From positions 92,318,001-92,382,000 of the forward strand of contig OZ024741.1 in NCBI GenBank assembly GCA_964016885.1: a stretch of 64,000 nt of DNA, read 5' to 3'. The stretch comes from Eledone cirrhosa (lineage: Eukaryota). The notes under the pieces were generated by a model. That model worked only from the letters and a program-made list of their open reading frames with translations. It was not told the origin of the DNA and ran no database searches. Positions 8,091 to 56,357 of this stretch are shown piece after piece. How positions within the stretch are numbered: the stretch's first letter is position 1; each line of letters begins with the position of its first letter. Both the position numbers and the translations under genes were made by a program.

Positions 8091-8490
8091 CCCTAGAACT
8101 CAGAACGGAAATCCTCAAACCTTTTGACAATTGACCCCATCATGGAATCTTAGACCCCCTCCTCGTCTACTTAAGGCATGCACAACAATAAACTATCGTA
8201 GCTAGAATGCCTTTGATGAGTGGTTTGGTCAATCAGGAGTGGGTTGAAGTTAAGCAACAACAACAAAAAAAACCAGTAACATCTTATATATCCTAATGCG
8301 CGTATCCCTTGCCGTCCTCCGGGGAAACGCCTTCTCTATTCTGTCCCCCGGGGCTATGGGGAGACAAGCTGATTATATTACGAATTCTGTTGAATAGTCT
8401 TAAATACCTCAATATTTTGATTCTGTGTATAGGACAGGAATTTTTGTCGATCTATCTGTCTGTTTGTCTGTCTGTCTATCTATCTATGTG

Positions 8491-9052
8491 GGTCAAGGTG
8501 AACGGCTACCTCTCGGAGCCGTTCCATATCACGCGATCCATTCGACAGGGATGCCCTCTCTCCTCCCTTCTGTACGTACTGACTCTCGAGCCACTACTGC
8601 GGAAGTTGGAGCTATTGCAGGGCATCCCTCTGGAACCGGGACTGCGGAAAGCGGCGTCGACCTACGCCGACGACTTGACAGTAATGGTGTCGAGCGCCTC
8701 GCAAATCGAGGAAGTCGGCACCTTACTGAAGGAATACGAAAGTTTTACAGGAGCGAAGCTGAACCGGGACAAGTCCATCGGTTTGCAACTCGGATCGTGG
8801 AGAGGCAAACCGATGGCTTCCGATGGCTTCGTCGGACGCTGGACGGAAGGACCGGTAAAGCTGCTCGGGGTCTGGTTTGGTCCGGACCTCCAGGTGGAGA
8901 AGAACTGGAACGAAGTGACGGCCAAGGTGTTTGCACTCACCCAGAAGTGGGCCGAGTGCAAACTATCCTTGAAAGGTCGAGCGGAGGTGGCGAACACTTT
9001 TATAGCGTCCGCCATCTACTACCGCTTGACCGTCGTGCCTTGTCCAGCCAAA
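8491..9052 (+). pseudogene. L1/Tx1 reverse transcriptase fragment
   Basis: SIRQGCPLS and YADD motifs; near-identical to part of 27844-28405. Confidence 0.9.
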
Positions 9053-9070
9053 CATTATTTAGTTTCAATA

Positions 9071-9462
9071 AGGGCGGTGAATTGGCAGTATCGGTAGAGG
9101 GTCGAACATGCTTTCCAGCGTAGTTACGTCCCTTTACGATCTGAGTTCAAATCCCGCTGAGGTTAACTTTGCCTTTCATCCTTACGGGGTCGATAAAATA
9201 AAGTACCAGTAATTATACTGGGTAATTGCTGGCCTTGTGCCAAAAATAGAAACAATTATTTAGTTTCAATGGCTGTGGATTGGCAGTATCGGCAGAGGGT
9301 CGGACGCCATGATTTGCAGCATAGAGTTATGGCCCTTTATGTTCTGAGTTCAAATCCCACTGATGTTAACTTTGTCTTTCATCCTTACGGGGTCGATAAA
9401 ATAAAGTACCAGTAATACACTGGGATAATTTTTGGCCTTATGCCAAAAGTAGAAACAATTAT
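9071..9462 (+). mobile_element. Tandem dimer of tRNA-derived SINE (Meta-domain-like)
   Basis: A box TGGCAGTATCGG, B box GTTCAAATCC and core 'ctttcatccttacggggtcgataaaataaagtaccag'; two copies of about 200 bp. Confidence 0.8.
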
Positions 9463-10319
9463 TATTTCATCTCTCAGTCTAGAGTACAAATCTTGCCGGT
9501 ATCTAATTGATTTTTAAAATCTATTTCACAGGCCATTTCACAAATAACATCTATTTCACAGGCCATCTACGAGTCAAATATTTTCTGTTTTCTCTGTCCT
9601 CTGTTTGTATTTGCCGTAATTCATTTATTGATTAACTAATTATGCAATCCGAACCTGATGATGTCGCCTGGATCTTACATAACCAGGCTATTGGATATAT
9701 ATATAGTGTTTTTGCAACAATAATTCCTGCACCAGCCACAGGATTCAACATATATATATATAGATATATTCATTAGTTAAGCAAAACAAGACCACAAATT
9801 TCAATGGACGAAGAAACTCTTGTGATCTCTGTCTTACCGAAGCCAATTACATAACTCTATCACGAACTCTACCGATTAATGATAGAACGGAGGTAACTAT
9901 TAGCTGTCAACATCGAAGGGCAAATTCCTTCGCCAACAGAATATTTGACCCAACATAGTCATCTAATCCCACTTTTACTTATAGCTAACTTAGATAATTA
10001 TAAGTTACCTCCCGTACATTGTCTCTCACTTAAACACATTAGCACTTCTTAACTATAAATCACCTACAATTTCTAATTTCTCAAGAAACCAGCCTCTAAT
10101 TAGTAAAATAAATATGTCCTTTGGCGGCCATCTTGTTACCCATAGGCAGATCTCGCATAATGCAGCCTCGACAGAGGAATATTGCTCGCCTATGGCAGAC
10201 AATAGATAGACCCAGGACACCATAATGAAATACCAATATATGGAACATTACATTCATGTAACCATCTTTCTTTACCTTAATTTATATTCCTTATCAATAT
10301 TTTCATCATCTCTTTTGAA

Positions 10320-10520: not shown

Positions 10521-13486
10521 GAAGAAACAGGTCCTAACCAAACAACAAGCAAATCTCGCTTAGTTAGCTGTAAAAAGCAAATAATAGTTAGCTCCTTGAA
10601 CACCAGAACCCTCCTTCCAACAGGTAGACTCCAGGAGCTGGCAGAGAATGCCAAACTTCAGAACATTGACATCCTTGCGGTCCAAGAACACCGCTTTTTC
10701 CACCCAAAGGATGATCTCAAGTATCACACTCTAGGATCCTACCAACTTGTCACCTCTTCAGCCACCAAGAACCCTGTCAATGCCTCCGTCGGAGGAGTCG
10801 GCTGCCTTCTCTCATCTAAAGCCAGCAATAATCTTCTGGGGATTTAAACAATCTCTCCCAGAATCTTGGTGCTTACACTAGAGGGCAATCCTAGAACCAC
10901 TGCGATATGTATATACAGTCCTGATAACGCCTCTCCTGAGGATGAGGTAAGAGAATTCTACACGACCCTTCGCACAGTTGCTGAGCAAGTACCCTTACAC
11001 AACTTTCTTATCATCGCTGGAGACCTCAACGCTCAACTTGGCCCGGATGAAGTAAAGTTCACATACAATAGGGTTACTAACCGAAACGGGGAATATCTCA
11101 AGGACTTCATGGAATAATTCAGTCTATTCAGCTCAAACAACAGCTTCATGAAGACCAGAGGCCAGCTTTGGACCTTCGAATACCCAAACCAAAAACGAGC
11201 TCAGATTGACTATTTGATATTTCGCAAGAAATGGAGAAACTCAATCAAAAATTCTAGATCTTATTCCTCCTTTAGCTCTGTTGGCTCAGATCATCGAGTC
11301 ATCTCGGCAACAATCAAACTTAGCCTCAGGATATCCAAGAGGGCCGAACCTCATCCCATGAAAAGAATAGACTGGAAAGCCGTTTCTTCCAACAAACAAC
11401 TATCCAATAGCTTCACGCTTCAAGTCTATAACAGATTTCAATCTCTCTCAACTTCTGACATCAATGACGATAATATTGAAGATGTGTATGACTGTCTTAA
11501 GCAATCAACAGAGGAAGTTGCACTTGCCACCCTACCTAAAAAGAAAAGCCGAAGCCAAATGAAACCTAGTGCCTCAGAGAAGGTAGTTGAGGAAAGGGCC
11601 CATCTTAGGTCAATATCCCAATCTCACCATCAATCACCATCTCAAGGGAAAAAGATACAGCTTATCATGGCCAAAAAATCACTAGACGACGCTTATCTTA
11701 ATGCTGAAGCCGACTATATCTCAGGTAGGATTGATCAGCTATCGCAACATCACATCAGCAAACACCATCATCTTGCTTGGAAGGTTGTCAAAGATCTTTC
11801 AGGCAAAAACTCAAACTCTGCAGTTAGAATCAAAGGAGGCTCTGCCAAAAAACGTCTTGAAAATTGGTCTGCTCATTTTAAAAACCTTCTAGGGAAAAAG
11901 GCCAGACTCCCTGATAACTATCAACTGCCATCTGTTCAGGTTTCAGAGCCTTTAGGAATCAACACCTCTCCTTTCACCATGCCTGAGCTCAAAGAAGCCA
12001 TCAAACAGCTCAAAGCCTCAAAAGCCTTTGGGCCGGATAATATACCTACCCTGATTTGGAAGGATGAGCATTTCCACATCCTTTTGCTCAACTTATGTAA
12101 CCATACTTTCGAGACCAATAAACCACCTAGCGTCTGGCATGCAGCTCAAATTATCCCCATGCCCCAAAAAGGAGATCTTTCTTTAGCCACCAACTATAGA
12201 GGAATTTCTCTCATGGCAATTGCTGCAAAAATATACAACAAGCTTCTTCTTAACCACTTAATCCCATTTCTTGAGCCAATCCTTCGTAACAACCAGAATG
12301 GATTTAGGAGAGGTAGATCAACACTTAGTCAGATTCTCTGCCTTCGCCGACTTATAGAGGAGTCCCAAAACCGCAATCTAGACCTTGCACTCATCTTTGT
12401 TGATTTTTCAAAAGCCTTCGACTCAGTTGACAGGTTGGGGATATTTGAAATTCTACAACTCTATGGGATTCCTGATAAAATCATCGCAGCCATACGTGTA
12501 ATGTATACAGATACCAAATCAACTGTCCTGACCCCAGATGGGGAAACCACCTTTCTCAATCCTCGCTGGAATTTTACAGGGCGATACCCTTGCTCCGTAT
12601 CTATTTATCATTGTTGTGGATTATGTTTTGCGCATGTCTGTGGATAGGATTCAGGATAGGGGATACCAACTACAGCCTAGGAGAAGCTCACGCTACCCAG
12701 CAAAATACTTGACCGACACCGACTTTGCTGACGACATCGCATTGACCAGGCGGTCACTGGAAAATGCTGAGAGTCTTTTGAGGTCATTAGAGCAAGCGTC
12801 CAACTGTGTTGGACTGTACCTCAACGAATCCAAGACTGAGTATGTGAACAGATGCGCAAACAGCCCAAACTACCCCATCAGAACCTTTAATGGTACCACC
12901 CTTAAGCAGGTGGAAGATTACAAGTATCTTGGCTCATATATCTCCTCCCCCAAAAAAGATTTTCTAACCAGGAAGGGTATGGCATGGTCATCATGCAATG
13001 ACATGCACGCCATATGGACATCTCAACTTACCAACAAGCTAAAACTGGAAATATTCCAAGCAACCATTAAGCCCATATTACTTTATGGATCCGAAACTTG
13101 GACACTAACATCACAACTTGAGAGGAGATTGGATGGCACATATACCCGCCTCTTAATGAGAGTGCAAACCTATCCTGGAAACGACATCCCACCTTGTCTA
13201 AAATCTATGGCAAACTCCCTCGAGCCTCTGCCCTTCTAAAATCCCGGAGAGCTCAATTTGCTGGCCACTGTCACCGTGCCAGCAATGAAATCATATCCGC
13301 TCTCTTGCTCTGGAACCCTGACTCCAGCCTGACTAGGAGTAGGAAGCTGTCATTCCCTGACGTTATCTCTAAGGATACGGGAATCAGTAGACAGGACCTG
13401 GGGGAAGCGATGGAGGCCAGGGAATTCTGGGGCATGAGAGTGAGATCCATCATCTCGACAGTAGTCGACGAGTGATGATGATGATG
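10521..13486 (+). mobile_element. RTE-clade LINE, AP endonuclease plus RT, disrupted by stops and frameshifts
   Basis: APE motifs (LAVQE, IAGDLNA, QIDY, SDH); RT motifs ([32 protein letters not shown]); (GAT)n tail; candidate TSD ATGTT(G/A)ACAA at 10511-10520 and 13484-13493. Confidence 0.92.
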
Positions 13487-13755: not shown

Positions 13756-14164
13756 AACATGGGAAGAAAGAGGAATACTGCGTGGTTGCACATGGGTTAC
13801 ATATTATAAAATTAGTCCCTCATCAGTGATTTGCCAACCATCATTGGTATTTCATCGCATTAAAAATCAGATACCTCAGGTTGGTGCGAGCAATAACTAA
13901 AATAAGCTATTGGGACAAGTGAATCGCGTAAAGCGAGTGAGACAAGTAAACAACAGAAGGAAAAGCAAACCGAAGGTAGGAAAACAGCAAGCAACATGAT
14001 GGTTATCCGGTCAGCATAAGCTGGGGGAATTTCATGAGCGGTCAGAAAACAGACGTTTATTATAACGCTCGCTTTGTCCATTTGTAAACAAACGGACAGC
14101 CTCATTTATGCCGCACGGTGTTAAGGCAATCACGTCACCTTTTTGTTCAACACTGACACAGGAA

Positions 14165-14205
14165 CGATGTACTAGTTTCAAGCTTCTTAGCTATCGTCAG
14201 CACCG
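14165..14205 (-). ncRNA. Type I hammerhead ribozyme
   Basis: Reverse complement of 14435-14475. Confidence 0.85.
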
Positions 14206-14434
14206 TATACCCTTCTGCCAGATGGTTGAACGTTCGAAAGTATATACTTTCCTTATGAAAATTAACGGCTGAGCAGCCTAATTTGCATATCGAGTGAGTT
14301 CAGTCGGCCAGGCGCACCGAAAACGATAAGTTAGAATAGAATGAAACGAAATTTCATTTCTCACTCTTAGTACGTTAATTTTCATAAGGAAAGTATATAC
14401 TTTCGGACGTTCAACCATCTGGCAGAAGGGTATA

Positions 14435-14475
14435 CGGTGCTGACGATAGCTAAGAAGCTTGAAACTAGTACATCG
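14435..14475 (+). ncRNA. Type I hammerhead ribozyme
   Basis: cggtg-CTGACGA-tAGCTaagaAGCTt-GAAA-CTAG-TA-catcg; stem I covaries with 575-615. Confidence 0.85.
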
Positions 14476-14611
14476 TTCCTGTGTCAGTGTTGAACAAAAA
14501 GGTGACGTGGTTGCCTTAACACCGTACGGCATAAATCAGGCTCTCCGTTTGTTTACAAATGGACAAAGCGAGCGTTATAATAAACGTCCGCTAAACTGAT
14601 ACGTACATATA

Positions 14612-14644
<33 letters not shown>

Positions 14645-14813
14645 GCTACTGTACGTCTATATACATATATGTATGTACGTATACATACATACTTACATTT
14701 AAGTAAGTGCCGTATAAGAGTGAGAAATGAAATTTCGTTTCATTCTATTCCAACTTATATATATATACATATTTATATATATATACATATATATATATAT
14801 ATGTATATATACA

Positions 14814-27339: not shown

Positions 27340-28851
<1,512 letters not shown>

Positions 28852-28981: not shown

Positions 28982-29019
28982 CCTTTACCGGTTTCGCAGT
29001 TCTTCTGCTTTTCAAAAGG
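28982..29019 (-). ncRNA. Minimal type I hammerhead ribozyme, U3-A8 variant (module E, 28845-29052)
   Basis: Minus strand: cctt-TTGAAAA-GCAGaagaaCTGC-GAAA-CCGG-TA-aagg. Confidence 0.75.
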
Positions 29020-29367: not shown

Positions 29368-31659
29368 CTTTATTAGCCACAGGGCACAAAATAAGGGGAC
29401 AAATACAAAGGGGGAAGTTTACATACAATAAAAACGTGTAAAATGTTATCACAAATGGAATTTAAAAAGTTAGTCGATTTTCCCCAATAGAGGGAGGCAG
29501 TTTATATGGGTAACACATACCCCTGAAAAAAATGTGCAACCCTCATCTCCAGGAGTACGAAGAGCTTGTACTCCCTTCCTCTCCTCCTCCTTTTCCTCAA
29601 CCTACAGGCTGATATAGAGAGAAGGCCCATTCACTCGGGCGATTCTCGCCACTTTCACCCACCTTTCATAAAACTTGCTGGGGTACAGCACCTCTCTCTC
29701 CATCCTGATTCTTCTTCCAAAGTGGTATTTGAAAAAAAGAATCAGTTGTTGGCCGGAGAGAAAGGTGTCTGACCTCAGCCCTTTCAACCTTGTCCACCAT
29801 ACAACCTCTTTCGCCATAGCTATCACACAAAGGAAAACCGCCTCTCCTTCGTTTTTGAAGGAGGGTGGCGGTTTGATCATGACAATGGACTCGGTGGTCA
29901 ACTGGATTGGTCCCACCCGCGACAATAGTCGTTCTACATAGCCCCACAGGTCGGTGACGCCTGGGCAGTGTATGAATGCGTGCGCGACGGTTTCTTCGTC
30001 TCGCACGCACCTCGGACCGATCTTTTTTGCAGGGTCCCTGCCCGGGCGCCCATGTCTGTAGAGCTTGTCTCGAACTGGTAGAGCTCCTCGGTAGCACTGC
30101 CAGGCCAGGGACTTTTGGAAGTTGTCCATCGGTCCCGGGCGGAAGGTTCTACCGAACAGACTGGCCAGTTCGTCTTCCTCTACGCCCAGAGTTTCACCGA
30201 GCGCGTCGTCGCACTTCCGGCGGACCAACCCTCTATAGAATGACGAAGTGGAGTCTCCACTGATCGCCGGGTCCGCCTGCCAGAGGGCTGTGAGCGCCTG
30301 AGCACATTCAATGTGCCAGTCGCCCATTTTCCTCGGTCTTTGCTTGACCCAGGACTGCAGCTCGGTCAGCGAGACGAGTCGTGGGAAGGCTCGCCTCACG
30401 AACGGGGCCCACACCGGTTATCCGGTGAGGAATACGTAGAGATGCCGCAGCCTGAGCGCGTGTTTGCGCATCGTCAACCACGGCATCCCCATCCCGCCGT
30501 TAGAAGGGTGTTGGCAGCAGATGGATCTTCTCACCAAAGGAGCCCGCCTCTTCCAAAGGAATCGGAAGAGCGCGCGCTCCATTTTGGCGAGCGTTTTGGC
30601 TGGACAAGGCACGACGGTCAAGCGGTAGTAGATGGCGGACGCTATAAAAGTGTTCGCCACCTCCGCTCGACCTTTCAAGGATAGTTTGCACTCGGCCCAC
30701 TTCTGGGTGAGTGCAAACACCTTGGCCGTCACTTCGTTCCAGTTCTTCTCCACCTGGAGGTCCGGACCAAACCAGACCCCGAGCAGCTTTACCGGTCCTT
30801 CCGTCCAGCGTCCGATGACGCCATCGGAAGGCATCGGTCTGCCTCTCCACGATCCGAGTTGCAAACCGATGGACTTGTCCCGGTTCAGCTTCGCTCCTGT
30901 GAGACTTTCGTATTCCTTCAGTAAGGTGTCGACATCCTCGATTTGCGAGGCGCTCGACACCATTACTGTCACGTCGTCGGCGTAGGCCGACGCCGCTTTC
31001 CGCAGTCCCGGTTCCAGAGGGATGCCCTGCAATAGCTCCAGCTTCCGCAGTAGTGGCTCGAGAGTCAGTACGTACAGAAGGGAGGAGAGAGGGAATCCCT
31101 GTCGAATGGATCGCGTAATATGGAACGGCTCCGAGAGGTAGCCGTTCACCTTGACCATTGAGCAGATGTTGCTGTTGTGCATTGCAGCAATCCAGCCCCT
31201 GAACACGGGCCGAAGCCTGCCGCCTCGAGCACCGCATCCAGGTAACGATGGTCAACCCTATCGAAAGCCTTAGACTGATCCAAGTTGATCAGAGCCCCAA
31301 CGAAGCCGGGTTTACACCCTACCCTCTCTATGATGTATCGCATGAGGTGGAGGTTGTCGTGTATGGACCTGGTCTGGATTGCGCATGTCTGCGCTTCTTC
31401 CACCAGGTTCTCGACGACAAGCGCCAGCCTCTTTGCCAACACCTTGGCCAAAATCTGTAACTCTGTGTTTAGCAGAGTTATGGGCCGGAAGTTGCCTATG
31501 TCATCCCCCTTATTCTCGTCCTTCCTGATTAGTGTGACCACGCCCCCGGTTACAGAACTGGGAATTCTCCCGTTCTGTTGCCAGTTGCAGTAGACCGCTT
31601 CCAGGAGACCGGAGAATAAGTTCGACATTGCTACGTAAAATTCGTAGGGTAGACCCTAC
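29366..31659 (-). mobile_element. 5'-truncated L1/Tx1 LINE (RT, C-terminal zinc-binding region, 3' UTR)
   Basis: Inverted near-copy of 27340-28712 plus LAWQCYRGALPV..C..ETVAHAFIHC; AATAAA then (TA)n; one frameshift and one stop. Confidence 0.92.
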
Positions 31660-31730: not shown

Positions 31731-31797
31731 GCGGCGATGTGTTCTGTTATTAATTCTGGCAATATTACGCAAATATGACCCTCCCCAAGTATAACAA

Positions 31798-31979
<182 letters not shown>

Positions 31980-31984
31980 TATAT

Positions 31985-32087
<103 letters not shown>

Positions 32088-32140
32088 TATATGTATATAT
32101 ATATATACATATATATATATATACATATGTATATATATAC

Positions 32141-32209
<69 letters not shown>

Positions 32210-32290
32210 TATATACATATATATATATATACATATATATATGTATATATATATATACATATATATATATATACATATGTATATATATAC

Positions 32291-32395
<105 letters not shown>

Positions 32396-32401
32396 CATAT
32401 A

Positions 32402-32491
<90 letters not shown>

Positions 32492-32505
32492 CATATATAT
32501 ATGTA

Positions 32506-32539
<34 letters not shown>

Positions 32540-32540
32540 C

Positions 32541-32583
<43 letters not shown>

Positions 32584-32624
32584 CATATATATATGTATAT
32601 ATATATATATGTATATATATATAC

Positions 32625-32655
<31 letters not shown>

Positions 32656-32997
32656 CATATATATATGTATATATATAATGAAAACTTGTTCACGTGACAG
32701 CCAAATTTCATTTATAACCAACCCCAAAAAAGCCTTCGTGAGCCTCCTTGTTTCAAGTAAAAAGAAATTCAAACACTCATATATGAAAAAACAACCTGTG
32801 ACAACCCCCCCCCCCCCCCTCTTATTTGAAGAACTATTGTAACGCGAACTGGCGCGAAATTTATTATAATTATTGACAAACCAATCAAATTACTTCTCGA
32901 AAAACCTGGCTTTCGAGCCACTTTTTCCATATAAAACAAGTAACATTTAGACACCAACCAGATGTGAGAAAAACCACAGACCCTCCATCTCAACTCA

Positions 32998-33035
32998 CCT
33001 TTTGGAAAGCAGAAGAACTGCGAAACCGGTAAAGG
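32998..33035 (+). ncRNA. Hammerhead ribozyme (module E copy, A6G mutated)
   Basis: cctt-TTGGAAA-GCAGaagaaCTGC-GAAA-CCGG-TA-aagg, within island 32680-33173. Confidence 0.6.
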
Positions 33036-33166
33036 AACCAAATAAATATATATATTTTTTTTAAAAATAAGACTTCAGTTGCATTTTCGATTTCATCTCT
33101 TTTTCTTTATACTTCCACTCGTGTAGGACACCTCGGTTATTTTTCATTTTGTAAAAAAAACCTCAC

Positions 33167-33354
<188 letters not shown>

Positions 33355-33356
33355 GT

Positions 33357-33395
<39 letters not shown>

Positions 33396-33517
33396 TATAT
33401 GTATATATATATGTATATATATATACATATATATATATGTATATATATATATATGTATATATACATATATATATGTATATATATATATATATGTATATAT
33501 ATATACATATATATATG

Positions 33518-33549
<32 letters not shown>

Positions 33550-33567
33550 TATATACATATATATATG

Positions 33568-33649
<82 letters not shown>

Positions 33650-33687
33650 TATACGTATATATATATATATATATACATATATATATG

Positions 33688-33719
<32 letters not shown>

Positions 33720-33776
33720 TATACATATATATATGTATATATATATATGTATATATATTATATATATATACATATA

Positions 33777-33820
<44 letters not shown>

Positions 33821-33861
33821 TATACGTATATATATATATATATATATATACATATATATAC

Positions 33862-33910
<49 letters not shown>

Positions 33911-33946
33911 TATACGTATATATATATATATATGTATATGTATATG

Positions 33947-34084
<138 letters not shown>

Positions 34085-34085
34085 C

Positions 34086-34132
<47 letters not shown>

Positions 34133-34157
34133 TATATGTATATATGTATATATATAT

Positions 34158-34208
<51 letters not shown>

Positions 34209-34216
34209 TATATGTA

Positions 34217-34263
<47 letters not shown>

Positions 34264-34281
34264 ATATATATATATATATAA

Positions 34282-34313
<32 letters not shown>

Positions 34314-36474
34314 CGCTATTTCAGAGCATTTATTCCAATTTCTAATTTCTGCCGGACCGGCAACCGCTCTTTCAAACCAGTTCCTGTACACAGCTAAGTA
34401 TTCTATAAGTCTCTAGCTGTGTCATTCTCGATAAGAGCACTGGATATGTAGTCCTGATGATTTCTAACAAGAATGAAACGCGTAGATTACTTCCCTTGCT
34501 TTTATCGAGAATCTAATTGTAATACGTGACGTATTCTATTCTATAGCGATTAGGTCTTCAAAATGTTTATTATAAACATACAGAATATTTTCGAATATTC
34601 TATGTCTATATTCACATATATATCGCTATTTCAGAGCATTTATTCCAATTTCTAATTTCTGCCGGACCGGCAACCGCTCTTTCAAACCAGTTCCTGTACA
34701 CAGCTAAGTATTCTATAAGTCTCTAGCTGTGTCATTCTCGATAAGAGCACTGGATATGTAGTCCTGATGATTTCTAACAAGAATGAAACGCGTAGATTAC
34801 TTCCCTTGCTTTTATCGAGAATCTAATTGTAATACGTGACGTATTCTATTCTATAGCGATTAGGTCTTCAAAATGTTTATTATAAACATACAGAATATTT
34901 TCGAATATTCTATGTCTATATTCACATATATATCGCTATTTCAGAGCATTTATTCCAATTTCTAATTTCTGCCGGACCGGCAACCGCTCTTTCAAACCAG
35001 TTCCTGTACACAGCTAAGTATTCTATAAGTCTCTAGCTGTGTCATTCTCGATAAGAGCACTGGATATGTAGTCCTGATGATTTCTAACAAGAATGAAACG
35101 CGTAGATTACTTCCCTTGCTTTTATCGAGAATCTAATTGTAATACGTGACGTATTCTATTCTATAGCGATTAGGTCTTCAAAATGTTTATTATAAACATA
35201 CAGAATATTTTCGAATATTCTATGTCTATATTCACATATATATCGCTATTTCAGAGCATTTATTCCAATTTCTAATTTCTGCCGGACCGGCAACCGCTCT
35301 TTCAAACCAGTTCCTGTACACAGCTAAGTATTCTATAAGTCTCTAGCTGTGTCATTCTCGATAAGAGCACTGGATATGTAGTCCTGATGATTTCTAACAA
35401 GAATGAAACGCGTAGATTACTTCCCTTGCTTTTATCGAGAATCTAATTGTAATACGTGACGTATTCTATTCTATAGCGATTAGGTCTTCAAAATGTTTAT
35501 TATAAACATACAGAATATTTTCGAATATTCTATGTCTATATTCACATATATATCGCTATTTCAGAGCATTTATTCCAATTTCTAATTTCTGCCGGACCGG
35601 CAACCGCTCTTTCAAACCAGTTCCTGTACACAGCTAAGTATTCTATAAGTCTCTAGCTGTGTCATTCTCGATAAGAGCACTGGATATGTAGTCCTGATGA
35701 TTTCTAACAAGAATGAAACGCGTAGATTACTTCCCTTGCTTTTATCGAGAATCTAATTGTAATACGTGACGTATTCTATTCTATAGCGATTAGGTCTTCA
35801 AAATGTTTATTATAAACATACAGAATATTTTCGAATATTCTATGTCTATATTCACATATATATCGCTATTTCAGAGCATTTATTCCAATTTCTAATTTCT
35901 GCCGGACCGGCAACCGCTCTTTCAAACCAGTTCCTGTACACAGCTAAGTATTCTATAAGTCTCTAGCTGTGTCATTCTCGATAAGAGCACTGGATATGTA
36001 GTCCTGATGATTTCTAACAAGAATGAAACGCGTAGATTACTTCCCTTGCTTTTATCGAGAATCTAATTGTAATACGTGACGTATTCTATTCTATAGCGAT
36101 TAGGTCTTCAAAATGTTTATTATAAACATACAGAATATTTTCGAATATTCTATGTCTATATTCACATATATATCGCTATTTCAGAGCATTTATTCCAATT
36201 TCTAATTTCTGCCGGACCGGCAACCGCTCTTTCAAACCAGTTCCTGTACACAGCTAAGTATTCTATAAGTCTCTAGCTGTGTCATTCTCGATAACAGCAC
36301 TGGATATGTAGTCCTGATGATTTCTAACAAGAATGAAACGCGTAGATTACTTCCCTTGCTTTTATCGAGAATCTAATTGTAATACGTGACGTATTCTATT
36401 CTATAGCGATTAGGTCTTCAAAATGTTTATTATAAACATACAGAATATTTTCGAATATTCTATGTCTATATTCA
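34314..36474 (+). mobile_element. 7 x 310-bp tandem array with one HHR per unit (non-LTR retrozyme-like, family R1)
   Basis: Unit starts at 34314, 34624, 34934, 35244, 35554, 35864 and 36174; HHRs at 34448 + 310n; (TA)n on both sides. Confidence 0.9.
34448..34490 (+). ncRNA. Type I hammerhead ribozyme (first of 7 copies)
   Basis: gtagtc-CTGATGA-tTTCtaacaaGAAt-GAAA-CGCG-TA-gattac; 16-bp outer stem attctcgataagagca/tgcttttatcgagaat. Confidence 0.88.
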
Positions 36475-36502
36475 TATATATATATATATTTATATACATA
36501 TA

Positions 36503-36557
<55 letters not shown>

Positions 36558-36580
36558 GTATATATATACATATATGTATA

Positions 36581-36642
<62 letters not shown>

Positions 36643-36736
36643 TATACATATATATATATATATGTATATATATACATATATATATATATGTATATATATA
36701 CATATATGTATATATATGTATATATATATATATACA

Positions 36737-36788
<52 letters not shown>

Positions 36789-36806
36789 TATATACATATA
36801 TGTATA

Positions 36807-36886
<80 letters not shown>

Positions 36887-36917
36887 AATATAAATTAGCG
36901 AGAATCGTTTTCAGCTC

Positions 36918-37026
<109 letters not shown>

Positions 37027-37028
37027 TG

Positions 37029-37068
<40 letters not shown>

Positions 37069-37101
37069 CAAATATAAATTAGCGAGAATCGTTTTCAGCT
37101 C

Positions 37102-37346
<245 letters not shown>

Positions 37347-37368
37347 TATATGTATATATATGTATATA

Positions 37369-37410
<42 letters not shown>

Positions 37411-37426
37411 CATATATATATGTATA

Positions 37427-37540
<114 letters not shown>

Positions 37541-37556
37541 CATATATATATATTTG

Positions 37557-37594
<38 letters not shown>

Positions 37595-37614
37595 TATACA
37601 TATATATATGTATG

Positions 37615-37654
<40 letters not shown>

Positions 37655-37672
37655 TACATATATATATGTATG

Positions 37673-37703
<31 letters not shown>

Positions 37704-37717
37704 GTATATATATATAC

Positions 37718-38941
<1,224 letters not shown>

Positions 38942-39707: not shown

Positions 39708-41245
39708 ACTTTGAATAACTTTGAAATGTTTTGGCCAGTATTGGCCCAGGCCATGTCTAACTTAATAGCACCACCTGGCGAAGTCTTTCAATTCAGGATT
39801 TGGGCACCATGGCCCATTCGAGAAGAGAATTACTGTTTGCGGAGACATATCCGGGTGTGGGTGGTTTGTCCGGGATTACTTAGAGGAATTTGTCCAAAGA
39901 CTTCTTGAATTTTGTGTGGTCAGTTTCTGTTTTGACGTGTCCTGGTGTGATGTAGAAGAGAGCAGGGCCGATTGAGGTGAAATAATTGTGCCGTATTGTT
40001 GTTATGAGTTGCGATTTAGATTTTTGAATGGGACGGATAGCACGGGGCCCAAGCCTTGGGTGTATCTTGAAGGCGATGCCAACATCATTTGGGCAGTGAT
40101 GATGGAACATTTTCCACATCATGCAGATAATATAACGCTCACGGCGACGTTGGAGTGAGTAAAGTTTCAGGTTTTCCAATCGACCCCAGTAGTCAAGGTC
40201 TGACATGCCATCTATCTTTTTCGTGATTGCCCTTTGAGGAGCTTCAAGTTTCATGATACTTTGTTTCGCGTGGGGAGACCACAGTGGACAACAGTATTCA
40301 AGGTGTGGTCGGGCAAAAGTAGAGAAGAGAAGGATAATGGTGCGGGAATCTCTCGACTGGAAGGTTCTGAGGGTCCAGGAACACATTCTGCGGGCCATGT
40401 CAACTTTGCTGCTTATATGCGTGGTCCAGCTTATGTTGCTGTCCACGGTTACTCCCAAGTCTCTGATGTTGTTAGATGCCACGAGAGTTTCCCCGGAGGG
40501 AAGGGAGTACGGGAGTTTCAGAGCATCCTCTTTTCCAAAGTGGATCAGTTCGAATTTGTCTTCGTTCAGTAACATGTTGTTCTTTTCTGCCCATTGGGTA
40601 ACAGCCAGTAGGTCTGACTGAAGGCTTATCCGGTCATCCACGCCATTGATGACCTTTTGGAGCTTGGAATCATCAGCAAAAATTTTAATGTTGCTGTGTT
40701 TGATGATGTCAGTGATGTCATTAATATAGATGATGAAGAGAAGTGGGCCCAACACAGTGCCTTGTGGGACCCCACTACTGACTTTGGCTGGGCTTGATTT
40801 GACTCCCTCAACTACAACATGTTGGGTTCTGTTTGACAGGAAGCTCTTGATCCACTGCAGCAGCTTTCCAGTGACACCAATATTGGACAGCTTTCTCAGT
40901 AGAATGTTATGATCAACCCTGTCAAAGGCCTTGCTGAAATCAAGGTAGATAACATCAGTGTTGGAACCCTCTCCCAAGGCTCTCAAAATGTCATCAAAGT
41001 GATGCAGTAGCTGCGTCAGGCAATCCCTTCCATTACGGAATCCACGCTGGTTGGAGTTCAGCATATTGTTACTCTCAAGGAAGTGGGTCATTCGCGATCT
41101 CACCACTCTCTCAAATACCTTAATGATATGAGAGGTGAGTGAGATTGGACAGTAATTCACGGCAAGGGATTTGTTTCCCTTTTTGAAAACTGGGACAACA
41201 GACTGGGATAGAAGGTTTTCTGGCACATATCCAGCATCCAGTGAG
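39708..41245 (-). mobile_element. 5'-truncated CR1/Jockey-group LINE (RT)
   Basis: YLDFSKAFDRVDH, SGVPQGTVLGPLLF, FADD and LEYCCPLWSP; (TTCAAAGTTA)2 tail; TSD TTTATATA at 39700-39707 and 41246-41253. Confidence 0.9.
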
Positions 41246-41310
41246 TTTATATATTCCATTAAAGAAATATATTTCACCAATTAATCGATTGGTAAATATA
41301 TACATATATG

Positions 41311-44444: not shown

Positions 44445-44539
<95 letters not shown>

Positions 44540-44542
<3 letters not shown>

Positions 44543-44932
44543 AAAGAATAGAGGTGTAACACACAAGTTATTATATATTGGTAAACGGAATAGAAAATGC
44601 TGACAAATTGTTCACAGTTGAAAAATGGTTTAATTAGGAATAAAAGAGTATTAGTGATTCTATGGGTTAGTATTCAGTTGTGGTTTTAAGTTTTTAAGTT
44701 TTTACCGGTTGCGCATTTCTAAATGCTTTTCAAAAATAATTTTGAGATAGAGTGTCCGTGCTGTTTGCTCTGATCTGATTAGTTTTGGGAATTCTACCTG
44801 TTTTTATGTTAAAAAAGTGGCTCCAATTTGCAAAAATTCTTGTGGTCAAAACAATTTTGATTGGTCGGTAGAGGTCATGCGAATAAAAAATTGGTTTTGC
44901 GCCAAGATTGAGAAATGACTCTTTCACAACAA

Positions 44933-45010
<78 letters not shown>

Positions 45011-45497
45011 TAGTAGTAGTAGTAGTAGTAAGGTGTTCGATGTTGTGATAATGGTTAGCAGCGATGTGTGTCAAATGGCTATTAAGATAAGTGTCTGTGT
45101 GTGTGTGTGTGTGTGTGTGTAGCAGAGTAATTCGTGGTGGCAAGGATGGTCAGTAAGAATGTGTCTGAAAGCAATGGGGGGTATTTTAGCATGTCAAAAG
45201 ATATTTTCCAGCTTTTGTCTTATACGGAGAAGTGCGTGTGTGTGTGTGTGTGTGTGTATATAAGTCTCTTTGTATGTTGTTGTACGCGTGTGTATGTGTG
45301 TGTGTATGTGTGTGTGTATATATATGTGTGTGTGTGTGTGGGGGGGGGGGGGGGTGGACCAGTATTTTTCCCCCCTGGTAAAATGGTGTACATTATTAGA
45401 TTTTTTCAGTAAAATCGGTTCTCTTAATAGAACATCAAAAATCTTAACAATAAAAGGTGTGAAATGATATTCACTATATATATACACATACATATAT

Positions 45498-45537
<40 letters not shown>

Positions 45538-47246
45538 TACATATATATATGCACATATATCTTTTTGTGTTGCACCATAGAGCATGTGTGTTTACGTATG
45601 TCATTGTGTTTATATGTGAGTAGAGATGTGTGCTGATGTAGGTATGTATGTTGACGTGTGTATGTTGTGGGTTCGTCTTAGGGAGAAGTGTTTAGACGGG
45701 GTCCGTATTTGTTAATGAAGTAAGATTCCTTGCTGATGCGCTGGGTGTGGGTGGCATTATCTTTAAATTTGTAGAGGGGAAAGATTCTGAAGTTGGGATG
45801 ATTTTGGGCGGCACAGGTATCAATGTGTTCACTCAGTGGTATTTTCCTGTATTCCCGTATTTTAATTTGGGATCTATGGACAGTCATGAGTTGGCGGAGG
45901 CTGTTTTTGGTCTGGCCTATGTATTGTTCTCGACAACCTGAACAAGTTAATACATATATTAGATTTTCCGATGCACATGTGAAATTGTGTTTTACTATAA
46001 AACGTTGTCCATCTTTGAAATAGAATTCCGAACCCTCTATTAGGTTGATGCAAATGCCACAGTTGGGTCTATCGCATTTTTTTACTGTGGGTTTCGTTGT
46101 TGTGGTTGGCAGTACTTTGGCATGTGTTAAGATGTTTTTCATTGACTTGGATTGTCTTTTGCTCTTTATGATATCATGTGTTCGTAGATTTTGGTTCATT
46201 CTATGGTCCTTTTTCAATACAGGGATGTTCTGGAGGATGGTGTCAAAGGCCTCATTGTTGAGGGGGTTGTGTGTGGAGATGTATGGAAGAGCTTTTAGTT
46301 TTGGTTGATTTACTTTAGGGTGTCTAAGGTCCTGGGTACTGAGTTTTACGGCACGTTGGATTCCATTGTCAATTAGTGATGCAGGGTAGTCCCTGCCTAT
46401 GAGTGTGTCCTTTAGTTCTTGTAGCCATAAGTAGCAGATGTTTTTATTGGAGACTATAGTACAGATTCTCTTGGCTAAGTTGTAGGGAATATTAATGTTA
46501 ACGTGTCTAGGGTGGCAAGAGTTGAAGGGGAGATATTGCTTGGAGTCTGTGGGCTTGTAGTATATGTCTGTTTCTATTTTTTTGTTATGGATCTTAATGA
46601 GGATGTCGAGGAAGGGGAGTTGTTGATGGCTGTATTCCATTGTGAAGTTAATATTTGTGTTGAGCCCATTTATAAGGGTGTGAAATTCTTTAAGTTTTTC
46701 GATGTTTTCGTGCCAAAGGATGAAGCAGTCATCTAGATATCGCTTCCAGTTCCTTTCAATGTGTAAGTGGAGGGTGTTTCCAAATTTGTTTAGGACTTTA
46801 GTGTAGAGGGTGATTTCCAGGTATCCCATGACTAGGTTGGCATAAGTGGGTGCTGTTTTCGTTCCCATAGCGGAACCAGATTTCTGCCTGTAGGGTTTGT
46901 TATTGAAAACGAAGTAATTGTTCTCCAAGATAAATTTGAGTCCCTCTATCACGAATTCTTTTTTGATGCGTTGTGGGAGTTCATTGTGGAAATTGTCCAG
47001 CCAGAATTGGATAGCTTCTATTCCTAGGTTGTGGGGGATGTTGGAGTATAGGTTGACTACATCGAACGTCACTAGTAGGGTTTGTTCAGAAAGTGGCATA
47101 TTAGGGAGGTGATTGAGCATATCTAGGTCGTCCCTTATATAGCTTTTGATGTGCTTGAGGAAGGGTTTGAGAAGGGTATCAATGAAGTTGCTAAGACGGT
47201 GCGTTCCGCAAGCGGGGCCTGCTATTATAGGTCTTAATTTGAGATC
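44540..47246 (-). mobile_element. Neptune-type PLE, 5'-truncated, inserted in (TA)n
   Basis: ORF plus about 1.1 kb of 3' region with a degenerate HHR at 44700-44736. Confidence 0.8.
45678..47246 (-). CDS. Penelope-like RT plus GIY-YIG endonuclease (frame open, 5'-truncated)
   Basis: [26 protein letters not shown] and YYKPTD; CDRPNCGIC zinc finger; LIY..C..C..YIGQT. Confidence 0.92.
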
Positions 47247-55625: not shown

Positions 55626-55660
<35 letters not shown>

Positions 55661-56313
55661 GGACACTCACAGTAAAGTGACCAGTGAAAACTCGGTACAT
55701 CTACATATGTACACGTGTGTGTATTCATATGCATACTAGTATTTCAGTATACATATGTGGATGTACATTTTTAACTTAATTGTTTAAGCGTCAGTCATAC
55801 AAAAGTGAGTTACAAACGAAACGAAATTTAATTTCGTTTCGTTATTTGTTTTTATCGTCTCCGTTGAACCGGTACGTACTCACGCTCTATGCAAATTGGT
55901 CTGCCCACTACTAATTTTCATAGAAAAAGCATATAACGATATGTGCTTTCACGATTCTCTAGAGAAGCCGGAAGATAGGTAAATATTGCTGATGAGATGT
56001 AACAACATCGAAACTAGTCCAATATTCCTTGTCTGGCTTTCTGGAGAATAGAGGAAAGGTGTTTCCTCAAAAACCAGTATGACTCTAAGAACCGGTTTGT
56101 CTGTGTGTCTACATACAGAATAGCTGGACACTCACAGTAAAGTGACCAGTGAAAACTCGGTACATCTACATATGTACACGTGTGTGTATTCATATGCATA
56201 CTAGTATTTCAGTATACATATGTGGATGTACATTTTTAACTTAATTGTTTAAGCGTCAGTCATACAAAAGTGAGTTACAAACGAAACGAAATTTAATTTC
56301 GTTTCGTTATTTG

Positions 56314-56318
<5 letters not shown>
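55661..56318 (+). mobile_element. 1.4 tandem units of a 465-bp HHR repeat (R2-related)
   Basis: 55661-55853 is repeated at 56126-56318. Confidence 0.85.
55982..56026 (+). ncRNA. Canonical type I hammerhead ribozyme
   Basis: aatattg-CTGATGA-GATGTaacaACATC-GAAA-CTAG-TC-caatatt; outer stem aagccgga/tctggctt. Confidence 0.93.

Positions 56319-56357
<39 letters not shown>

Follow-up and report, generated by a model that had tools for sequence, protein, structure and literature searches.

How did seven head-to-tail 310-bp units, each carrying a hammerhead ribozyme motif, come to lie within a (TA)n tract of the Eledone cirrhosa genome, and from what template were they copied? Non-LTR retrozymes and their proposed link to PLEs are already known; that they are copied from a circular template and mobilised by a PLE helper has been hypothesised on the basis of co-occurrence and pLTR phylogeny, and a 2026 preprint favours local satellite-like amplification of the tandems (10.64898/2026.07.22.740005; here and below, papers are cited for the accessible parts of their texts). 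We analysed a window of 64,000 nucleotides of contig OZ024741.1 together with further loci of the same genome. The family to which the array belongs is young and abundant enough for single insertion events to be read, and its value lies in this readable insertion record rather than in one array.

TRF on the window yields a period of 310 with 7.1 copies and 99% matches, and comparison of the units agrees with the array of seven copies and one substitution described in the initial annotation: counting from 34314, units 1–6 are identical and unit 7 is the sole variant unit (G36295C), the apparent change C36475T being the array running into the (TA)n. All seven hammerhead cores are intact (CTGATGA at 34454+310n, GAAAC-GC-GTA ending at 34484+310n), the 6-bp stem I and the 16-bp outer stem were both recovered in the unit, and TA tracts were found on both sides. 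The unit has a GC content of 0.35 and, as annotated, no ORF, none of the frames of the tandem unit staying free of stops for more than 59 codons; no tRNA gene was found in the window. The retrozyme identity proposed in that annotation agrees with every feature testable from sequence, and we regard the window array as a genuine and young insertion of a non-LTR retrozyme. Its 3′ end coincides with what we call the no-tail site of the family (unit ~301), and its 5′ end merges with the target at the internal (AT)4 of the unit. No inverted family fragment of at least 12 nt is present in the left TA tract of the array, and no target duplication is readable for it. The one-armed window array represents a minority form, as the family usually has two inverted arms. 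Coordinates are collected in Table 1.

Table 1. Features of the window. Positions are those of the window; in unit numbering, position 1 corresponds to window position 34314.
Feature	Position	Strand	Basis
One-armed family 1 insertion, 7.0 head-to-tail 310-bp units	34306..36474	+	Family sequence match
(TA)n tract, left target flank	31797..34313	.	TRF
(TA)n tract, right target flank	36474..37768	.	TRF
Type I hammerhead, unit 1, recurring every 310 bp	34448..34490	+	Motif and covariation
Hammerhead stem I, unit 1	34448-34453/34485-34490 (unit 135-140/172-177)	+	Pairing
CUGAUGA, unit 1	34454-34460 (unit 141-147)	+	Motif
Palindromic minimal stem III ACGCGT, unit 1	34478-34483	+	Motif
Predicted cleavage point, unit 1	after A34484 (unit 171)	+	Motif
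16-bp outer stem around the ribozyme	34424..34512 (34424-34439 with 34497-34512)	+	Fold and covariation
35-nt tail segment between the two 3′-end sites (unit ~301, ~26)	34615..34649	+	Junction mapping; once per unit junction
Single-unit substitution G>C, unit 7, outer stem	36295..36295	+	Unit comparison
Sister-family monomer, 316-bp unit, ~64% identical, separate insertion	37770..38071	+	Sequence comparison
5′-truncated autonomous-type PLE, RT and C-terminal GIY-YIG, CX4CxxC linker, Neptune-like	44539..47246	-	Domain and linker comparison

The ribozyme combines a 6-bp stem I (GTAGTC/GATTAC, including one G.U pair), a stem II that opens with a U.U mismatch, and a stem III of 2 bp and a 2-nt loop (palindrome ACGCGT), whose closure within one copy is impossible; for the palindromic stem III, an intermolecular duplex of -8.1 kcal/mol is predicted. 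The Infernal scan suggested in the initial annotation returned no Rfam family at gathering score, the best match being HH9 with 19.2 bits versus 52 (E = 0.054), a score depressed by the minimal stem III; an Rfam match is not a defining feature in the retrozyme papers (PMC7229834; 10.64898/2026.07.22.740005). Judged by the U.U mismatch in stem II, the 2-nt loop III and the sub-cut-off score, the hammerhead is weak on paper. Both weak features have cleaving precedents in axolotl, where helix III of HHR_Amex1 is a weak palindrome and helix II of HHR_Amex2 has U.U at its base; each of the two ribozymes cleaves better as a dimer (PMC7229834). A palindromic helix III implies activity as a dimer (PMC4209133), and the ribozyme is probably of the dimer-dependent type. 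Among Xenopus retrozyme dimers, eight out of nine did not cleave in vitro (10.64898/2026.07.22.740005).

In an alignment of 20 relatives, 92% of cells pair and 24 out of 30 pairs have changed on both sides; at the 3-8 core pair, eight relatives have C-G and 12 have U-A. The covariation of helices I-III and the 3-8 pair was matched in none of 500 shuffles, a control inflated by the relatedness of the 20 relatives, and slid controls were far lower. These two-sided changes suggest that the ribozyme has been maintained under selection. A full stem III is present in older subfamilies, while families 1 and 2 are reduced to the palindrome, and the common family-1 variants fall at tolerated positions, namely, N7, loop 2, wobble pairs, and U148A, the last of which closes stem II. 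The outer stem covaries across subfamilies as well and contains several recurrent A>G sites, e.g., the G at 34435 in the window, where A is commonest in the family. Folded as a circle, the unit has a predicted energy of -67.9 kcal/mol versus -48.3 +/- 3.9 for 60 dinucleotide shuffles (z = -5.0). Apart from the ribozyme, blocks conserved across subfamilies occur at unit ~45-100 (window 34358-34413), including the TATA-like TTCTATAAG, and represent a possible internal promoter.

The exact 31-nt core has 4,587 matches in the genome versus none for the reversed control, and hence is not a chance motif. With its common variants, the core has 17,228 matches in the 3.0-Gb genome, and the motif common to the sister families has 22,141. 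Extrapolation from the 17 core-bearing insertions in the first 31 Mb of C1 and from ~9.5 units per insertion gives ~1,500-1,800 family insertions; the copies are 97-100% identical to the window unit, and the family is young, dispersed, and non-coding. The insertion set (n = 98) comprised the window array, six loci ranked by their likeness to the window, and 91 loci from C1 chosen by core or end patterns, with two matches shorter than 60 bp dropped and the two parts of L107 merged. An LTR-internal-LTR layout is absent from these 98 insertions.

The unit was also found in four public sequencing runs of unstated kind, one of which (X2) may be the assembly's own sample; none of the runs recorded as containing the unit is an RNA run, which is uninformative about its expression. 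Run X2 contained 415 pieces at very high depth, and runs X1, X3, and X6 yielded one 340-nt contig each, looping on the unit; these contigs were rejected as evidence of a circle, since a tandem array yields an identical loop. It is true that perfect units within a long (TA)n are hard to assemble and that the copy number at the locus is taken from the assembly. Nevertheless, an assembly artefact is exceedingly improbable, given the 17,228 dispersed cores, the locus-specific haplotypes and the stereotyped junctions described below, and the presence of the unit in the public runs.

The sister-family monomer next to the right TA tract has a U3-A8 hammerhead core at 37865 and ends at the sister family's own tail site. 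Elsewhere in the genome, this sister family forms two-armed arrays too, with ends ~30 nt apart, and at L256 (C2:207695500-207705400) it forms a higher-order array of 316-, 304- and ~500-bp units, a pattern that shows later satellite-like amplification.

The anatomy of the insertions is highly regular. In 88 out of 98, a minus-strand and a plus-strand array are joined head to head; the two-armed total is 90/98, including two incompletely covered cases, all of them divergent, and one arm was seen in the remaining eight (one only partly covered, one not readable further). One outer 3′ end lies at unit 25-33 (at 26 in 71/92) and the other at 297-310, and each of the 88 fully seen two-armed insertions combines one tail and one no-tail end, two ends of one type never being found together. 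A coordinate-only check gave 42 divergent end pairs, 40 of them mixed, and no convergent pair; the two exceptions proved to be mixed on inspection. As many loci were selected by both ends, the less biased figures come from the one-end and core-only picks: among 41 insertions picked by one end, 34 have the opposite end type, four are one-armed, and three are incompletely covered; among 17 picked by the core alone (first 31 Mb of C1), 12 are two-armed, one has a short inverted piece, three are one-armed, and one is unclassified. Across the genome, exact tail junctions number 1,041, and the no-tail end has 1,216 matches. From these ends we infer that unit ~301 and unit ~26 are two reverse-transcription start sites.

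The targets are (TA)n or AT-rich DNA. Candidate target duplications were seen in 21/88 insertions, of which ~7 are convincing by eye (~10-15 bp), most being masked by (TA)n; the duplication at L040 lies in non-repeat AT-rich DNA. In non-LTR retrozymes, such duplications, where they occur, exceed 4 bp. Inner junctions (n = 87, raw counts) overlap by at least 1 nt in 56 cases, are blunt in 10, and contain inserts in 21. Foreign inserts of 272 nt at L043 (2899-3170; GC-rich) and of 54 nt at the inner junction of L150 separate the arms, which suggests template jumps to other RNAs. Each arm spans 0.2-27 unit rounds, and the tail arm is longer in 48/87 insertions, which is not a clear difference (p = 0.056). 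Classical L1-type twin priming, where the first cDNA is expected to stop at the start of the second, was rejected as the rule, since 17/174 inner ends lie near the no-tail site versus 14.6 expected (9/87 in the tail arm, 8/87 in the no-tail arm).

A 30-40-nt tail at one end only and an inverted 5′-truncated copy are hallmarks of PLEs (PMC8557442, PMC3846280). In vitro, purified Poseidon protein acts on both strands of AT-rich DNA, cutting and extending them, and Poseidon PAc uses two internal RNA start sites, with the gap between them forming the tail (PMC11167929). PLE mobilisation was a guess in the initial annotation; the 35-nt tail, the inverted 5′-truncated arms, the (TA)n targets, and the candidate ~10-15-bp target duplications make it very likely.

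The PLE at 44539-47246 indicates what kind of element the helper could be. Its CX4CxxC linker fits the Neptune/Nematis type (PMC8557442). The family of this young PLE has a 784-codon open frame with RT and GIY-YIG domains and copies that are 98-99% identical; a (TA)n target, two ends 38 nt apart, and mixed ends in two-armed copies were seen, and the distances from the hammerhead-like motif to the ends are 126 and 164 nt, compared to 130 and 165 nt in the 310-bp unit. The terminal repeat of the young PLE lacks homology to the unit, and a search for a homologous autonomous partner in 30 PLE and 30 GIY-YIG loci (1.5-kb flanks) and 17 diverged relatives (4-kb flanks), a small part of the 46,282 and 10,595 first-look candidates, yielded none. 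Thus, the helper is identified by kind only, the young PLE being the candidate type. The single match, at L258, is a separate retrozyme in a TA tract beside a PLE, and the PLE fragment adjoining one array belongs to another, GC-rich family, with no tie found to the array. In the young PLE (44539-47246, minus strand; L208-L236), the hammerhead-like motif has GCAA instead of GAAA, and the element seems to spread with a damaged ribozyme; related PLE subfamilies retain GAAA with U3-A8.

Other elements were observed in the window and among the examined loci. A minimal-hammerhead element forms a head-to-head pair in (TA)n at 13900-14750 (cores at 14200, minus strand, and 14440, plus strand), and another element of this kind lies at 450-900 (core 580); its stem III palindrome is ACTAGT, many copies are present in the examined loci, and it looks like a further PLE-derived family. 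At 55650-56320 (core 55989), a hammerhead unit forms a direct partial, pLTR-like tandem between TA tracts. U3-A8 hammerhead-like motifs with stem III palindrome ACCGGT, at 29015 (minus strand) and ~33000-33030 (plus strand), match the 3′ ends of local PLE subfamilies in L271 and L278. A separate hammerhead family (L167 5039-5064, L172 3529-3554, also L210, L215, and L247) combines the same basal U.U in stem II with a full stem III. The window also contains LINE-type RT fragments (Pfam RVT_1) at 8297-9097, 11118-13239, 27344-28582, 30418-31251, and 39880-41280; a dimer of a 203-bp unit at 9050-9463, which resembles a tRNA-derived octopus SINE and in which ARAGORN found no tRNA; and a short fragment repeated between TA tracts at 36885-36925, 37068-37105, and 38262-38300, with another element starting at 38262.

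What RNA was copied is recorded in the variation within and between arrays. The 94 insertions with at least three units contain 34 fixed haplotypes, and 109 out of 126 fixed-variant events are present in both arms, the rest being cases where the other arm is absent or the site is not covered. With single-unit variation at 0.50 per kb, sampling of one donor unit per insertion would lead to 13.1 new fixed substitutions among the 89 C1 insertions, compared to 15 private ones seen, private being relative to a sample of ~6% of loci; single-unit variants common to different loci number 11 versus 10.6 by chance. In-register mirrored variants amount to three events in 69 kb of overlap versus ~35 for in-register linear copying, the latter being our estimate from donors as mixed as today's arrays, while actual donors were younger; both expectations fall insofar as part of the single-unit variation is assembly error or post-insertion mutation. 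Unmirrored columns number 105 (~70 events). In the three mirrored cases (L115, L162, L178), the outermost, first-copied units of both arms share a variant missing from inner units, and at L111 the haplotype switches within one arm; these four loci are compatible with a mixed linear multimer or with switching of the template, in a minority of insertions. Inner 5′ ends are no more frequent at the cleavage site than expected (4/174 versus 5.05), and thus the template was continuous across it. Both this continuity and the monomer bottleneck are expected of a circle; copying of a monomer circle is our best model and a reasonably probable one, with a putative RNA circle and predicted self-cleavage. 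Hence the rolling-circle copying proposed in the initial annotation is favoured by the insertion record, except for the three out of 87 insertions that resemble copies of linear multimers.

The same two-primer PLE insertion could have used a long uncleaved linear transcript of a homogeneous donor, with the hammerhead being a passenger or serving another step, and no circle. The variants mirrored in outermost units (L115, L162, L178) and the haplotype switch at L111 agree with such a template, and its read-through would also account for the absence of ends at the cleavage site. Moreover, hammerhead cleavage is dispensable for PLE insertion in vitro, where hammerhead mutants insert normally (PMC11167929), and the core of the local PLE is damaged (GCAA). 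However, mirroring occurs in only 3/87 insertions, the 34 fully homogeneous haplotypes among 94 insertions would each require a monomer-to-multimer step, arms of up to 27 units leave no trace of shortening lineages, and the hammerhead helices covary, so we consider the linear transcript rather unlikely.

A cleaved linear monomer, with the RT jumping repeatedly from the 5′ end of the monomer back to a 3′ end, could likewise yield tandems and would require no covalent circle. It would account for the monomer bottleneck and for occasional haplotype switches (L111, L115), and the inserts of 272 and 54 nt (L043, L150) show that template jumps occur. It is improbable, though, as 5′ ends do not accumulate at the cleavage site (4/174), the 171/172 junctions are exact in nearly all of the ~935 unit equivalents, and jumps between molecules would mix haplotypes far more than observed.

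The fixed variants also have a distinct spectrum. Among distinct fixed substitutions, read on the ribozyme strand, 14/31 are A>G, compared to 14/124 of the single-unit ones (p = 6e-5); in C1 only, the figures are 9/26 and 14/119, respectively (p = 0.007). The fixed changes are strand-biased, with 14 A>G versus three T>C (p = 0.002). At predicted A-U pairs, 10 A>G changes are found (45 available), and at C-G pairs no C>T (29 available), so tolerance of wobble pairs alone is insufficient as an explanation. Sites 120, 137, and 191 have changed about three times each on the haplotype spanning tree, and L033, a locus selected for its likeness to the window, differs by A>G at seven sites, in each or almost each of its 15-16 units and in both arms. 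Among the private variants of C1, with window-like loci left out, only 4/15 are A>G, and at A>G sites the 5′-neighbour preference of ADAR is indistinguishable from background. RNA editing is heavy in cephalopods. With moderate confidence, the bias may be read as ADAR editing of single RNA molecules. The pattern at L033 is a further argument against the linear transcript, as editing of a multimer would vary from unit to unit.

The strand bias bears on local amplification as well, i.e., on the possibility that an inserted monomer was amplified in place as a minisatellite, by unequal exchange or DNA rolling circle, with the ribozyme uninvolved in array building. Such amplification has been proposed for retrozyme arrays (10.64898/2026.07.22.740005), and it would be in line with the later internal duplications seen in some arrays (L043, L124, L164) and with the higher-order sister array at L256. 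As the origin of the arrays it is highly improbable: the inverted arms are both multimeric, share fixed variants and have precise, differing outer ends, while dispersed loci are 98-100% identical and their fixed changes are strand-biased.

We therefore return to the copying of a monomer circle. The window array was likely written into (TA)n by a PLE RT/endonuclease that acted in trans and repeatedly copied a single 310-nt RNA, which was probably circular. Upon transcription of an array, neighbouring hammerheads would pair via the palindromic stem III and cut after each GUA, freeing 310-nt monomers, which a host ligase would close; a lone circle, having no partner, would resist re-cutting. Individual RNAs may be edited by ADAR at some A's of their long stems. 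The insertion anatomy is consistent with a PLE protein that would nick the two strands of a TA-rich target at points ~10-15 bp from each other, with both target 3′ ends priming cDNA on the same-sense RNA, one starting at the internal (AT)4 (~301-310) and the other ~35 nt downstream. Each cDNA would then cross the cleavage site for 0.2-27 rounds, and microhomology or short inserts would link the two cDNAs head to head into the usual two-armed insertion; in the window, the no-tail arm alone would have been sealed to the target by (AT)4 microhomology. More tentatively, a dimeric PLE may copy one circle from both cut strands, with each subunit using its own start site and with ADAR edits of the single molecule becoming fixed throughout the units of a new locus.

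Thus, PLE end signatures are found on a retrozyme, the rule of one tail and one no-tail end constrains the PLE mechanism (two starts, one per strand), and a monomer bottleneck with an editing-like bias is visible in the insertion record. If the tentative model of a dimeric PLE and an edited circle is true, RNA editing drives heritable evolution of the family, and the record provides direct genomic evidence for the so-far hypothetical retrozyme life cycle. A purifiable PLE system and a 310-nt template with mapped starts make the model directly testable, and such a small RNA, able to place multi-kb tandem DNA in TA repeats, is relevant to genome writing as well.

Many features of the family conform to those of known non-LTR retrozymes (Cervera and de la Pena 2020, PMC7229834; Li, Clavereau and Pollet preprint, 10.64898/2026.07.22.740005), which, as here, consist of tandem 150-450-bp low-GC non-coding units, have a type I hammerhead per unit and a strongly paired predicted circle, and co-occur with PLEs. 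The window unit combines the palindromic helix III of axolotl HHR_Amex1 with the U.U of HHR_Amex2 (PMC7229834). The accessible parts of these papers describe no two-armed insertions, PLE tail, (TA)n targeting, locus-fixed haplotypes, or editing footprint; the words "inverted" and "microsatellite" are not mentioned in those of PMC7229834, nor "tail" and "head-to-head" in those of 10.64898/2026.07.22.740005. The known retrozyme circles were demonstrated by northern blot, whereas the present one is putative. In the literature covered, i.e., openly accessible main texts, we found no cephalopod retrozyme, two-armed tailed retrozyme insertion, or retrozyme editing footprint, and the accessible text of an octopus repeat annotation does not mention "ribozyme" (PMC13282606).

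Similarly, the insertions share with EN+ PLEs (Poseidon PAc, PMC11167929; Neptune and Naiad, PMC8557442; Adineta Penelope, PMC3846280) a 30-40-nt tail at one end, an inverted 5′-truncated head-to-head copy, AT-rich or (TA)n targets, candidate ~10-bp duplications, and a hammerhead 125-165 nt upstream of the ends. They differ in having no ORF and arms of up to 27 complete units, compared to the partial tandem of PLEs. The no-tail start lies at an internal (AT)4 matching the target, whereas PAc starts without homology, and the two arms always use different start sites, whereas PAc showed no strand difference in vitro (PMC11167929). Chlamys non-autonomous elements, e.g., MRC1 (PMC8557442), are also multicopy head-to-tail PLE derivatives, but they belong to green algae, mostly have no hammerheads, and have 3′ sequences in common with autonomous partners, a sharing not found here. 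Finally, newt satellite 2 (PMC7229834, PMC4209133), a ~330-bp tandem repeat with a dimer-dependent hammerhead, resembles the unit; it forms long amphibian satellite arrays, while the present family consists of ~1,500-1,800 short, very young dispersed insertions.
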